Shown in pieces: positions 39,448 to 43,508 of a stretch of DNA of 64,000 bases. The stretch's first letter is position 1. The number at the start of each line of letters is the position of its first letter. The notes under the pieces were generated by a model that saw nothing but the letters and a program-made list of their open reading frames with translations, was not told where the DNA came from and ran no database searches. This DNA is from Thalassobaculaceae bacterium (lineage in GTDB: Bacteria; Pseudomonadota; Alphaproteobacteria; Thalassobaculales; Thalassobaculaceae). The position numbers and the translations under genes are program-made. The DNA is taken from contig OZ245843.1 in NCBI GenBank assembly GCA_965228875.1, forward strand, positions 2,152,616 through 2,216,615, given 5' to 3'.

Positions 39448-39554
39448 AACCGGACGGCCGGGGCGGGACGGCTCGGTTACGAGTTTTTTAATCGATTTGC
39501 GGTATCTGTCTCTCCCACGTGCCATTCTTGCCGTCGGCAAACGGAGGGGGTCGG

Positions 39555-41039
39555 GTGAGGTTCCGCAAGGCCGGGCTGTCGAGCAACCATCTGTCATTGA
39601 CGGGGTGGTTCCTGCTTGTTTGCCTGCCAGTGGTGGTCATCGCATCGACGGCGCTGGTCCTCGCCTACCGGGATGCGGAGCGGAGCACCGTCGTCGCGAC
39701 CGCCGAGGAGATGGCGCGCACGGAACTGAAGCTTCTCGCCAACGCGGTGTGGCCTGAATTCGGCGCCTTCCTGCTGGGGCCGGCCGCCGGCCAGACGCCG
39801 GACGCCATCGACCAGCGTACCCACGACATCTGGGCGCGGGTCGAGGCGCTCGCCCGCGATTCCAACCTGCTCAAGGTCAAGGTCTACAACCTCGACGGCA
39901 TCACCGTCTTCTCGACCGCGTTCGACGAAATCGGCCGAGACTATGCGAAGGACGCGGGGTTCCTGTCGGCCCGGAGCGGGGACCGTTACAGTGAACATAC
40001 GCAGCGCGACCGTGTGCAGACGCTCCAGGGCCGGCGGCAGGACGTGGAGATGCTCGGTGTCTACGCTCCGATCCGGGCCGGCGGCCCGGAGTCGGAGATC
40101 GTTGCCGTCATCGAGCTCTATATCGACATGAACCGGCTGGCCGGCGCGGTCGAGGGAGACCTGCGCTCGCAGATCGTCTACGGCATGATCCCGCTAGTCC
40201 TGATGCTAACGGTCTTGATCTGTCTGGCGGTCCTGCGAACCGCCGAGAAGCGGACCCGGCGGGAATTCTACAAGCGCATGCGCGTGCTCCAGCAGGCCCG
40301 AGACGCCCGCGACGCCGATCGCAGCAAATCCGAGTTCCTGGCCAACATGAGCCACGAGTTGCGCACGCCGCTCAACGCCATCATGGGCTATGCCGAGGCC
40401 ATTGCCCTGCAGCAGTTCGGCCCGAACGCAACCGAGCGCTACCGCGACTACGCCGACACGATCCTCTCCGCTGGCCGCCATCTGCTGTCGATCGTCAACG
40501 ACATCCTCGACCTGTCACGGGTCGAGGCCGGGAAGATGCCGGTGCGCACCGGCACCTGCAGCGTCGCGGAGGTGGTGAACCAGGTCAGCGCCATGCTGAT
40601 GCACCTGGCGGCCAGCCACAACGTAAAGCTCACGGCCGACGTTCCCTACACGCTGCCGACCATCGAAACCGACACCGACAAGCTCCGTCAGTGCCTGATC
40701 AACATCATCTCGAACTCCATCAAGTTCAGCGACGAGGAAGGGGCCGTGCGGATCAGCGCCACGGCCGGAGATGACGGCTCGGTCACCCTGGTCTGCAGGG
40801 ACGACGGCGTCGGCATGTCCATGGACCAGATCGCCATCGCGCTGAAACCGTTCGGCCAGGTGTCCGACGTCTATGCCCGCAAGATCCACGGAGCCGGCCT
40901 CGGCCTGCCCCTGACCAAACGCTTCGTCGAACTGATCGGCGGCGTGTTCGAGATCGAGAGCCAACCCGGCGCCGGCACGACCGTGCGCCTGCACCTCCCT
41001 GCCCGCTGCGTCGTCCAAGACATCGACGAAGCCGCCTGA
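39555..41039 (+). CDS. Membrane sensor histidine kinase (PleC/DivJ-like HisKA)
   Basis: Two TM flanking a periplasmic domain; FLANMSHELRTPLNAIMGY, PFGQV and GAGLGLPL motifs. Confidence 0.9.
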   Translation: MRFRKAGLSSNHLSLTGWFLLVCLPVVVIASTALVLAYRDAERSTVVATAEEMARTELKLLANAVWPEFGAFLLGPAAGQTPDAIDQRTHDIWARVEALARDSNLLKVKVYNLDGITVFSTAFDEIGRDYAKDAGFLSARSGDRYSEHTQRDRVQTLQGRRQDVEMLGVYAPIRAGGPESEIVAVIELYIDMNRLAGAVEGDLRSQIVYGMIPLVLMLTVLICLAVLRTAEKRTRREFYKRMRVLQQARDARDADRSKSEFLANMSHELRTPLNAIMGYAEAIALQQFGPNATERYRDYADTILSAGRHLLSIVNDILDLSRVEAGKMPVRTGTCSVAEVVNQVSAMLMHLAASHNVKLTADVPYTLPTIETDTDKLRQCLINIISNSIKFSDEEGAVRISATAGDDGSVTLVCRDDGVGMSMDQIAIALKPFGQVSDVYARKIHGAGLGLPLTKRFVELIGGVFEIESQPGAGTTVRLHLPARCVVQDIDEAA

Positions 41040-41153
41040 TCGGCCCACGCCGACACCCGCCGACGACCGATATCGGACCCCGGGGCATCCCGATGCGATC
41101 GTCTCGTCAGCCGATTTCGCCAAACGGGCATCTGCACTACAATGCCGCGCATC

Positions 41154-41224
41154 GCCCTCTAAGCCATTAAAGACAGAACGAGTTCATACGACCGGGTGCC
41201 TCCATCCGATCGCGATCTGCTCAA
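41154..41224. repeat. Right-half copy of dispersed double-hairpin repeat
   Basis: AAGCCATTAAAGACAGAACGAGTTCATACGACCGGGTGCCTCCATCCGATCG aligns with 43556-43606. Confidence 0.7.
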
Positions 41225-42058
41225 ATGGCCAAATCGACCACTCAGGGAGTATCCGGCGTGAGAAGACTCGGCAAGTCCGTCGCCATGCTCGGCAAGGCGC
41301 GCCTGCACACCACCATCAGCGTCGAGGCCGAACACGACCGTCGGCGCCCGGTCCTGCTGGTTCACGGCGGCTATCACGGCGCGTGGTGCTGGGAGCGATG
41401 GATCCAGCGTCTCTCCGAGGACGGCCGCAAGGTCCATGCCCTGGATCTGCGCGGCCATGGCGGGCTCGAACCGGACGATGACTTCGTCACCGCCGGCGTG
41501 GCCGAGATGGTCGAGGACGTCGTGATGGCGATCGACACGCTGCCGAGCCGACCGGTACTGGTCGGACACTCGCTCGGCGGGCTGATCGTCGTGCTGGCGG
41601 CGCTGCAGCGCGACGTGGCCGGCCTGCTGCTGCTCTGCCCCTCGCCCCCCGGGAACCTGCCCGGTGCGGCCCGGGTGCCGCTGGTCGATGAAGGCGCTCC
41701 CTGTCCGCCGCTGGACGCAGCGGGCCTGAGAGAACGCTATGCGCCGCATCTCGACGAGGCCGAAGCCGAAGCGGTCGCCGCCCAGCTCTGCGCCGAGAGT
41801 CCGAGGCTGCTGAACGAGCGATACGACCTGCGCATCCCGGTCGATCCGCAGGCGCTCGACAGCGACCTGCCGATCCTGGTGGTCGAGGGCGGCCGCGACG
41901 ATCCGGCCCGTCACCCCGCCGGCCAGGATGCGGCGATCGCCGCGTTCTACCGTGGCGAGCATCTGCGCCTGGACGACGCGCCGCACGACCTGATGCTCGG
42001 TCCCGGCTGGCGCGGCTGGTTCAAGTCGATCTGGAAGCGCTTCGACGACCTGCTCTAG
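41225..42058 (+). CDS. Alpha/beta hydrolase
   Basis: LLVHGG, DLRGHG, GHSLGG nucleophile elbow and PHDLM; the start may be GTG 41258. Confidence 0.88.
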   Translation: MAKSTTQGVSGVRRLGKSVAMLGKARLHTTISVEAEHDRRRPVLLVHGGYHGAWCWERWIQRLSEDGRKVHALDLRGHGGLEPDDDFVTAGVAEMVEDVVMAIDTLPSRPVLVGHSLGGLIVVLAALQRDVAGLLLLCPSPPGNLPGAARVPLVDEGAPCPPLDAAGLRERYAPHLDEAEAEAVAAQLCAESPRLLNERYDLRIPVDPQALDSDLPILVVEGGRDDPARHPAGQDAAIAAFYRGEHLRLDDAPHDLMLGPGWRGWFKSIWKRFDDLL

Positions 42059-42160
42059 ACACCCGTCCGCGCCGCGCCAAAGACGCAGACGGCATCCGCC
42101 GGTTTTCGCGGCTCGAGGGATGGCGGAGCCCAACGCGCTTGGGTAGTATCGCGTCCGTGT

Positions 42161-42471
42161 GCGGGCGTGGTGAAATCGGTAGACACAACAGACTTCACGT
42201 GGAGTGCCCAGGGGGAAACCCCCGGAGTAGAACCGCTCAAACTCGGGGAAAGCTGACGGATAGCGCCGCTGCCAATCCCGAGCCAAGCCCTCCCCTGGTG
42301 GAGGGAAGGTGTAGAGACTAGACGGGCGACACCTAAGGCCAGGCGGCTAAGGTGAAGGGATAGTCCAGACCACGAACGGAAGCCGCGCGGCCTCCGGCGG
42401 CGAAAGTCGAAGTGGTACGAAAATCTGTATCCCGTATGGGAGTGGGGGTTCGAGTCCCCCCGCCCGCACCA
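42161..42471 (+). tRNA. trnL-UAA: tRNA-Leu(UAA), intron-containing (exons 42161-42195 and 42420-42471)
   Basis: Acceptor stem GCGGGCG/CGCCCGC, A discriminator and CCA. Spliced anticodon arm ACAGA-CTT^AAAA-TCTGT. Long variable arm TCCC-GTAT-GGGA. T arm GGGGG-TTCGAGT-CCCCC. Confidence 0.96.
42196..42419 (+). ncRNA. Group I self-splicing intron (IC3, Azoarcus-like), 224 nt, no ORF
   Basis: P1 ACUUC/GGAGU with U.G at the splice site; P3 CGCUC/GGGCG; P4 CUCGGG/CCCGAG; P7 GACUA/UAGUC; P8 CACCU/AGGUG; GAAA loops in P2 and P9; terminal G at 42419. Confidence 0.95.
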
Positions 42472-42590
42472 CATTTCCCCTACAGGACCGTTCCGGCCGG
42501 TCGACGCGACATTCATGCACCGGGATACGAGGTCGCTATTGCTCGAGGGGACCGCTATCCCTACCTGTACATCCGCATCGGAGGGACCCC

Positions 42591-43508
42591 ATGGCCAACG
42601 CATACCTGCACGTGTTCGAAGATCGCGGCGTCATTCGCCTGTCGGGCGAGGATCGGGTGACGTTCCTGCAGGGGCTGGTGTCCAACGACGTCACGAAGGT
42701 GTCACCCGAACAGGCGGGCTACGGCGCATTTCTGACGGCGCAGGGGAAGTTCCTGTATGACTTCTTCCTGATCGCGTTGGACGACAGCCTCCTGATCGAG
42801 ACCACCGCCGATCGGATCGACGAGTTCCTCCGCAAGCTGCGCATGTACAAGCTGCGCTCCAAGATCGAGTTGAGCGATGCCAGCGAAGCCTGGACCGTCG
42901 CCGCCGTCTTCGGCGACGGCGCGCTTTCGGCGCTCGGGCTGCCGGCGGAGAGAGGCAGCAGCATCCCTCTCGGCGGCGGCATTGCGTTCGTCGATCCGCG
43001 CCATGCCGAGGCCGGCGCCCGCCTGGTGCTCCCGGCCGGCGACGGTGCGACGGACGCGCTCGGCCTCAGGCCCGTGGACCGCGACGCCTACGATCGGCGC
43101 CGGGTCGCGCTCGGCCTGCCGGACGGCGCGCGCGACATGGCCGTCGAGAAGACCGTATTGCTGGAGGCCGGCTTCGAGGAGCTTGGCGGGGTCGACTTCG
43201 ACAAGGGCTGCTATATGGGACAGGAACTGACCGCCCGCACGAAGTATCGCGGTCTGGTCAAGCGTCGGCTGATGCCGATCGCGATCGACGGCCCGCTGCC
43301 GACCCCTGGCACCGAGATCACCCTGGACGGCCGGGAAGCCGGCGAGGTCCGCACGGTGGTCGCCAACGGCGACGGCCAGGAGGGCGGCGGTTCCGGCCTG
43401 GCGATGATCCGTCTGAATAGGCTCGACGAGGCCCTGCGCTCCGGCGCGCCGCTGACCGCCGGCGAGGCGACCGTCATCCCGCACAAGCCGGACTGGGCCA
43501 GCTTCTAG
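42591..43508 (+). CDS. ygfZ: Folate-binding YgfZ/IBA57 family protein
   Basis: FLQGLVSND and KGCYMGQE motifs. Confidence 0.93.
   Translation: MANAYLHVFEDRGVIRLSGEDRVTFLQGLVSNDVTKVSPEQAGYGAFLTAQGKFLYDFFLIALDDSLLIETTADRIDEFLRKLRMYKLRSKIELSDASEAWTVAAVFGDGALSALGLPAERGSSIPLGGGIAFVDPRHAEAGARLVLPAGDGATDALGLRPVDRDAYDRRRVALGLPDGARDMAVEKTVLLEAGFEELGGVDFDKGCYMGQELTARTKYRGLVKRRLMPIAIDGPLPTPGTEITLDGREAGEVRTVVANGDGQEGGGSGLAMIRLNRLDEALRSGAPLTAGEATVIPHKPDWASF

Follow-up and report, generated by a model that had tools for sequence, protein, structure and literature searches.

A gene for tRNA-Leu(UAA) occupies positions 42161 to 42471 on the forward strand of the window, i.e., the whole 64-kb stretch of DNA that was analysed, and is interrupted directly 3′ of U34 (position 42195) by an intron of 224 nt (42196-42419) whose last nucleotide is a G (42419). 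The 5′ exon (42161-42195) comprises the 5′ strand of the acceptor stem, the D arm, the 5′ strand of the anticodon stem and C32, U33 and U34; the 3′ exon (42420-42471) starts with A35, A36, A37 and A38 and continues through the 3′ strand of the anticodon stem, a long variable arm, the T arm, the 3′ strand of the acceptor stem and an encoded CCA. Joined in silico, the exons are recognized by ARAGORN as an 87-nt class II tRNA-Leu(UAA) with the anticodon loop CUUAAAA, and the sequence-only reading, which had proposed that excision of 42196-42419 restores a leucine tRNA, was exact in its coordinates. The exon junction predicted on removal of the intron is GACUU^AAAAUCUGU, in a product of 87 nt vs. 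311 nt for the unspliced form. The exon anatomy places the insertion between nucleotides 34 and 35 (CUU/intron/AAAA), the classical site of tRNA-Leu(UAA) that had been named from the sequence, and 224 nt leave no room for a homing endonuclease gene, again as that reading had it. The flanking ORFs encode a histidine kinase, a hydrolase (41225-42058, with its stop at 42058, upstream), a YgfZ/CAF17-like protein (start at 42591) and an oxidoreductase. A scan for promoter and terminator consensus sequences near the split gene found none.

The gene escapes routine annotation, as had been anticipated: default ARAGORN reports no tRNA across the 64-kb window, and Rfam with gathering thresholds gives no match there. 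With E-value thresholds, and with the split-gene stretch searched alone, the Rfam model RF00028 (Intron_gpI) matches 42186-42380 over its full length with 48.1 bits (E 2.4e-11), i.e., 1.9 bits under the curated cut-off of 50, and this is the sole match to the model in the 4.96-Mb, single-contig genome. The low score is explained by the seeds of the model, none of which is bacterial, and thresholds of 18-20 bits have been used (Williams 2020). By its own statement, tRNAscan-SE 2.0 is not designed to detect such introns. When introns are allowed, ARAGORN does detect the split gene, but sets the intron one nucleotide too far left and labels the product Phe(GAA), in a mode that is unspecific (143 genes called in the host genome vs. 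52 without introns); we assign the gene to Leu(UAA) in view of its class II body, a U ahead of the splice site and a G at the end of the intron.

We drew the P1-P9 fold of the intron by hand on the sequence of the window (69 pairs in 14 helices, all on the forward strand), where 66 of the 69 pairs are standard and the remaining three are an A.C in P2, a C.A at the end of P3 and an A.C in P9a. In P1 (42192-42205) the exon nucleotides ACUU (42192-42195) pair with the guide GAGU (42202-42205), U34 facing G 42202 as a U.G pair at the 5′ splice site, and C42196 with G42201 closes a 4-nt loop. P2 (42208-42225) is capped by a GAAA tetraloop (42215-42218) and contains the one A.C mismatch already mentioned. 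The 5′ strand of P3 (42234-42238) finds its partner at 42324-42328, in a helix of 5 to 6 pairs, and P4 (42243-42248 with 42276-42281) encloses P5 (42252-42272), which has an internal loop. The P6/P6a hairpin (42282-42310) is followed by the 5′ strand of P7 (42314-42320; G119 and G121-A125, with A120 bulged), paired with 42361-42366, and by P8 (42330-42354), whose CCUAAG...UAAGG we take to be a one-base variant of the 11-nt tetraloop receptor. The P9 region (42369-42416) is a three-way junction, in which a closing helix (42369-42373 with 42412-42416) holds the hairpins P9a (42377-42396) and P9b (42398-42409; GGC-GAAA-GUC, with the GAAA loop at 42402-42405).

For the covariation test, the structure was mapped by hand onto a MAFFT alignment of 47 related introns. 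The fold, including the P3/P7 pseudoknot, is 91.1% paired over these introns vs. 30-45% in controls with the 3′ partners slid by 1-3 columns, a comparison that favors the drawn version since it derives from one of the aligned sequences (that of the window). Changes on both sides occur at 49 of the 69 pairs, none of 500 shuffles attains the observed values, and the compensatory changes are plain even though the structure came from the window sequence. P4 and P7 are 100% paired and P3 is 99.6% paired, the latter with compensatory changes at four of six pairs (CG, GC and UA across the family), while all seven pairs of P2 show double-sided changes. The outer pair of P5 is GC in 25 introns, CG in 20 and UA in 2, the P7 pair 125:166 is AU in 25, GC in 13 and UA in 9, and covariation likewise covers P6/P6a (helices 7 and 8) and P9 with its hairpins (helices 12-14). 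The P1 splice-site pair is U.G in 43 of the 47 sequences, the other four being Leu(CAA) introns, which are placed one base upstream; the 3′ strand of P8 varies within the family (UAUGG, UAAGG, UAGGG). Minimum free energy folding of the single sequence, a method that cannot show the P3/P7 pseudoknot, yields P1, P2, P4, P5, P6a, P8 and P9 with a z-score of -1.8. The helices expected of a group I intron are thus present and covary, and the elements listed by the sequence-only reading (P1 with its U.G, P2-GAAA, P3, P4, P6a, P7, P8 and P9) are all supported; only its description of the hairpin at 42377-42396 as “extra” has to be dropped, as this hairpin occurs family-wide.

The host genome contains 52 intronless tRNAs, in which leucine is represented by the anticodons GAG, UAG, CAG (two) and CAA only, and the split gene is its sole tRNA-Leu(UAA). 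UUA is used sparingly: of 3065 crude ORFs, 234 contain it, with 266 TTA codons in all (0.20 per 1000), and given that there is no other tRNA-Leu(UAA), the reading of these codons would depend on splicing. On present evidence, drawn from sequence comparison, we consider it highly likely that a self-splicing IC3 group I intron resides here in a functional tRNA-Leu(UAA) gene. By analogy with characterized members of the family, the primary transcript would fold into P1-P9, and an external guanosine bound in P7 would attack the phosphodiester bond after U34, which would be held as U.G with the guide GAGU. The terminal G (42419) would then occupy the guanosine site, and the freed 3′ OH of U34 would attack the 3′ splice site, joining the exons and forming the loop CUUAAAA. 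The receptor-like loops of P8 and P5 would probably serve as docking sites for the GAAA loops of P2 and P9b. The analogy includes a related Arg(CCU) intron, BbgpI of Bartonella bacilliformis, which lies in an unannotated tRNA gene, is self-splicing, and splices both in vivo and in vitro (PMC7717549).

Could the gene instead be a decaying relic, with an intron that has lost its splicing and with UUA decoded poorly, if at all? The three non-standard pairs, the rarity of UUA and an Rfam score under the cut-off might be read in this way. However, at each of the 51 invariant columns of the alignment the window has the residue common to all 47 sequences, all other pairs of the fold are intact, UUA persists in more than two hundred ORFs, and a low Rfam score is what a model with non-bacterial seeds would be expected to give. 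Moreover, a copy at 99% identity is present on a contig from a different sample, and of its two differences within the intron one converts the C.A at the end of P3 to C-G. We thus regard decay as highly improbable. A second such contig has the stretch from the tRNA end through the trailer to the downstream gene in common with the host, at ca. 95%; together with the 99% identical intron this indicates that the arrangement is not private to one assembly. Contigs of three sequencing runs, none of them of RNA, contained no joint across the intron site; one contig (X1), where a similar 5′ exon is joined directly to AAAATCTGT, is another organism's intronless gene and no spliced product, as a different variable arm follows.

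The intron belongs to a known and common class. A survey of 80,413 bacterial genomes yielded 5292 split tRNA genes, in 21 settings, with “Leu.3Ug” as one of the four classical IC3 types (Williams 2020, bioRxiv), and the site between nucleotides 34 and 35 described here is that of Leu.3Ug. An intron-split tRNA-Leu(UAA) has been noted in Burkholderia in the description of tRNADB-CE (Abe 2008, PMC2686568), and two reviews (PMC3984707, PMC4033280) assign tRNA group I introns in cyanobacteria to Leu UAA and fMet, in alphaproteobacteria to Arg CCU and in betaproteobacteria to Ile CAU. The kind of intron, its occurrence in proteobacteria and the fact that annotation overlooks it have thus all been published (Williams 2020, Abe 2008, tRNAscan-SE 2.0), and the split gene as such opens no new question. 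Our search of the openly accessible literature found no paper naming tRNA-Leu(UAA) introns specifically in Alphaproteobacteria, and the phylum table of Williams 2020 may well list them. The Agrobacterium-type tRNA-Arg(CCU) intron was reportedly described by Paquin et al. in 1999, and a 2002 report by Vepritskiy is said to concern a gammaproteobacterial tRNA-Leu(UAA) intron.

Surveys with the core motif of the intron gave the same impression. In a scan of species representatives at least 120 stretches matched, 80 loci were examined and 57 could be typed for their host tRNA (ARAGORN combined with the rule of U at -1 and G at omega); among the matches listed, Leu(UAA) accounts for 31 of the 57, and named cyanobacteria for only 5 of these 31. 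Seven of the 31, among the same listed matches, are alphaproteobacteria by title (Phenylobacterium with two, Rhodovulum, Stellaceae, Pacificimonas, Hoeflea and Paracoccaceae), and the other hosts of Leu(UAA) introns listed there include Burkholderia, Acidobacteriota, Eremiobacterota, Bacteroidota and more. In an even sample of the host's taxonomic class, the exact motif, which undercounts, occurs in 39 of 401 genomes (the host included) and 34 of 294 genera, with no match to the reversed pattern used as a control. Of 40 matches in this class sample 30 were examined, and 20 of the 30 are Leu(UAA); the remainder are five Arg(CCU) and a likely sixth (L217), single cases of Thr(GGU), Lys(CUU) and Leu(CAA), and an untyped locus. 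The U34/A35 setting in Leu(UAA) is thereby shared with 50 other typed loci among the matches listed, one of which (G033) was found by both scans. The rarity that the sequence-only reading had implied therefore does not hold, tRNA-Leu(UAA) being the commonest host among the typed loci of the class sample, and this class of introns being already catalogued (Williams 2020; Abe 2008).

The nearest introns, at ca. 80% identity, are those of alphaproteobacterial tRNA-Leu(UAA) genes; G135, the closest relative among the introns compared, shows 81% identity over the intron and 90% over the exons. Identity to the intron of the window is 80-81% in Phenylobacterium and 77-80% in Rhodovulum, Stellaceae and G033, 65-74% for Arg(CCU) introns, and 55-56% for the betaproteobacterial introns inserted after nucleotide 36 of CAU tRNAs. 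The intron can be aligned over its full length with cyanobacterial Leu and alphaproteobacterial Arg introns, the label IC3 itself being taken from the literature rather than from a subgroup-specific model. A tree of 67 introns (232 columns) places it in a poorly resolved group of 40 rows together with alphaproteobacterial Leu and Arg introns, outside the cyanobacterial and CAU clades, each with 100/100 support; none of the well-supported clades contains the intron of the window. AU tests did not reject a sister relation to either the cyanobacterial Leu clade (p 0.319) or the betaproteobacterial CAU clade (p 0.376), and statements on origin consequently rest on pairwise identity and on the architecture of P9. 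The three-way P9 junction is common to the intron of the window, alphaproteobacterial Leu and Arg introns and cyanobacterial Leu introns, whereas betaproteobacterial CAU introns have a single P9 hairpin.

These comparisons also delimit the likeness to known introns. With the Azoarcus tRNA-Ile(CAU) intron, that of the window shares the IC3 core GGUGUAGAGACUAGACGG ... AGUCCAG, GAAA loops in P2 and P9 and a receptor-like motif in P8, but the Azoarcus intron sits in a different tRNA and at a different site, the one after nucleotide 36 of the CAU tRNA. The CAU introns of Polynucleobacter and Comamonadaceae served as stand-ins for Azoarcus in the comparison; the earlier epithet “Azoarcus-like” is accordingly true of the generic IC3 core only, because these introns differ in their P9 architecture, as they do in their low identity. 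Cyanobacterial and plastid trnL introns share the host tRNA, the site CUU/AAAA, the U at -1 and the G at omega, and the cyanobacterial ones also the IC3 fold with its three-way P9 junction, but the five named cyanobacterial copies are just 50-61% identical to the window's intron, are longer (254-312 nt vs. 224) and form a 100/100 clade of their own. In Burkholderia, too, the only tRNA-Leu(TAA) is intron-split and missed by tRNA finders (Abe 2008, PMC2686568), but the three sampled introns of Burkholderia/Paraburkholderia are betaproteobacterial, 55-69% identical and in a separate 100/100 clade. Alphaproteobacterial Arg(CCU) introns share the IC3 architecture, the size range (222-252 nt), the P9 junction and the region of the tree, and differ in the tRNA, in the site (after nucleotide 36) and in a guide sequence that is retargeted.

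The host's 16S rRNA shows 86-87% identity to its counterparts in Sphingomonas, Rhodovulum and two Bradyrhizobium genomes, which is consistent with an alphaproteobacterium of another order, and agrees with the host group named from the sequence; an order-level check of five metagenome-assembled genomes returned no 16S match. A sample of 41 relatives was searched for full-length matches to the intron: 7 of 14 genomes outside the genus but within the family have one, as does 1 of 16 from other families, whereas none of the 10 other members of the genus does. The related introns in this sample are hosted by Leu(UAA), Leu(CAA) (after U33), Lys(UUU) and Thr(GGU). Each of these ten congeners has an intronless tRNA-Leu(UAA), almost invariant in sequence among them, and in the four relatives that could be aligned with a GC-rich flank this native tRNA follows 25-35 nt after the stop of the orthologous hydrolase gene, which is conserved in the genus. 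The native tRNA is 69% identical to the spliced tRNA of the window, with differences in the acceptor, anticodon and variable arms, while the intronless tRNA-Leu(UAA) of three other genera of the family and of one genome from another family of the class are 84-88% identical to that spliced tRNA. Similarity between the host and its genus ends at ca. 42062 and returns ca. 30 nt before the YgfZ/CAF17-like gene at 42591, leaving a segment of ca. 500 bp (42063-42560, boundaries approximate) that is unique to this genome and consists of leader, split gene and trailer. The leader (ca. 100 nt) and the trailer (ca. 90 nt) are unique within the genus, and against the loci compared they gave only a 13-nt match at chance level (L003, E 0.32) and the last ca. 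30 nt of the trailer.

The split gene is positioned exactly at the breakpoint of a chromosomal rearrangement. In the relatives the YgfZ/CAF17-like gene lies 19-57 kb from the tRNA, and the 19-kb stretch separating the two in G006 and G009 lies inverted in the host, at G000:2066892-2088899, 106-128 kb away. As ten of ten genus genomes have an intronless tRNA that is 69% identical, the whole gene, and not the intron alone, looks foreign. We consider it quite probable that the whole split gene replaced the native, intronless tRNA-Leu(UAA) behind the hydrolase gene, at the point of rearrangement. Another alphaproteobacterial lineage is the most likely source of the whole gene, although no donor was found among the sampled loci; since even the nearest relative (G135) reaches no more than the identities given above, the transfer would either date far back or involve a lineage outside the sample. 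For the direction of the replacement we rely on parsimony over 11 genomes, not on a rooted species tree. The two most divergent members of the genus (59-60% identity in the neighboring protein vs. 77-81% in the remaining eight) also carry the genus-type tRNA, which makes this type ancestral for the genus. The lateral acquisition suggested by the sequence-only reading is therefore upheld, in that relatives have a different, intronless tRNA behind the same upstream flank, but its other suggestion, of an intron transposed into the resident gene, is not, as the exons are foreign too.

The latter scenario, in which the intron invaded a resident tRNA-Leu(UAA) by homing or reverse splicing, or was transposed from another tRNA, deserves a word, as the occurrence of related introns in Leu(CAA) after U33, Lys(UUU), Thr(GGU) and Arg(CCU) implies that movement between tRNAs and sites has occurred in the family. 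In this genome, however, the two exons are unlike the genus-native gene from end to end, and leader and trailer are unique as well; invasion by the intron alone would have left the native exons in place, and we find it hardly credible here. It might also be supposed that the split gene is ancestral in the host lineage and that the other members of the genus replaced theirs. The spliced tRNA is indeed of a type common in the family and class (84-88%), and half of the sampled family members from other genera have a split tRNA-Leu, but with ten of ten genus genomes, the two most divergent included, sharing a near-identical intronless tRNA, the host would have to branch outside all ten, or several independent replacements would be needed, and we judge this very unlikely.

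As to the route by which the gene arrived, it could be what is left of an integrative island that brought along an intron-split replacement tRNA-Leu(UAA); having integrated into the native gene, the island would later have disappeared or been scrambled by rearrangement. This concerns the manner of acquisition and is no rival to the intron call. Of 24 alphaproteobacterial loci with a split tRNA-Leu(UAA), 7 have an adjoining ORF of ca. 400 aa whose similarity to tyrosine-integrase domains is weak but spans the full length, and the location of the host's gene at a breakpoint with an inverted 19-kb block would also suit an island. Nevertheless, the integrase matches at these seven loci fall below the Pfam cut-off, no integrase-like ORF lies within 1.5 kb in the four nearest relatives examined (L003, L189, L194, L218), and the ORFs directly flanking the gene of the window are ordinary, with no integrase. 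Neither pieces nor halves of the native tRNA occur anywhere in the host genome, nor are there repeated copies of exon, leader or trailer that would mark the ends of an island. An island origin is thus unlikely. Rather improbable, too, is its more specific form, with the gene as the last trace of a mobile replacement-tRNA module whose integrase was unable to cut its own split copy, the island then being lost. If that were true, a high-GC host would read its 266 rare UUA codons via a ribozyme, and the supply of this tRNA could be coupled to GTP and Mg levels, in a manner comparable to the limit that bldA sets on UUA decoding in Streptomyces.

In sum, the only tRNA-Leu(UAA) of this genome holds an IC3 group I intron that is real and, judged from comparative sequence data, very probably functional. 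The intron call, the function and the whole-gene replacement are, taken together, probable. For annotation, this means that the host genome would be scored as lacking a UUA tRNA unless split genes were searched for, and the same gap would concern about one in ten of the sampled species of the host's class, i.e., those with the intron core. The displacement of a native gene by a foreign whole gene is well supported and is the point of local interest. The case indicates that these introns need not rely on homing alone for their spread and can travel with a whole split gene that displaces the native one, which fits the sporadic distribution of these introns that has been seen since the 1990s.

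The region G000:C1:2066892-2088899 of the source genome (G000), which lies outside the window and about 64 kb ahead of its start, is the inverted counterpart of a 19-kb block that, in the congeneric genomes G006 and G009, is flanked by the native, intronless tRNA-Leu(UAA) and a ygfZ-like gene. Given that this block is inverted and placed elsewhere in the source genome, the split tRNA-Leu(UAA) gene (42161-42471, forward strand) is located at a rearrangement breakpoint. Within the window itself, a segment at ~39456-41296 spans about 1.84 kb, compared with only about 120-180 bp in two relatives (G006 and G001), and carries a histidine kinase ORF (39519-41039) recognized by its HisKA and HATPase_c domains. 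This segment looks to have been either inserted in the window's genome or deleted from the relatives.

A divergent tyrosine-integrase-like ORF of about 400 aa immediately adjoins the split tRNA-Leu(UAA) in 7 of 24 alphaproteobacterial loci (L195, L196, L199, L201, L212, L215, and L216). Pfam matches of these ORFs cover the full domain, but they are weak and below the cut-off. ArdA, HipA, HsdM, Prim-Pol, and phage lysozyme are also found as neighbours at these split-gene loci.

Two genomes assigned to the genus of the source genome (G002 and G010) are only about 1.5 Mb in size, their genus-type tRNA-Leu(UAA) genes (loci L172 and L173) are set in very AT-rich flanks, and the protein neighbouring the tRNA reaches an identity of only 59-60%; both look like reduced genomes. 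Another, G007, contains three extra tRNA-Leu(UAA) copies unlike the genus type, and in its locus L184 (G007:C15) 12 tRNA genes, among them one of these copies, are packed into about 1 kb. The extra tRNA arrays of this genome may be phage-borne or contaminant.

A variant of the window's intron (42196-42419) was recovered on a 297-nt contig from another sample, with A>G changes at both 42329 and 42350. The former converts the C.A mismatch ending helix P3 to C-G, and the latter turns the receptor strand of P8 from UAAGG to UAGGG, a form that also occurs in other members of the family.

Related introns also split tRNA-Leu(CAA) in family members G022, G015, G021, and G017 (loci L004, L007, L008, and L028), inserted after U33, i.e., one base earlier than in tRNA-Leu(UAA). 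Both split genes co-occur in G017, and in G021 and G022 Leu(CAA) is split while Leu(UAA) is still intronless.
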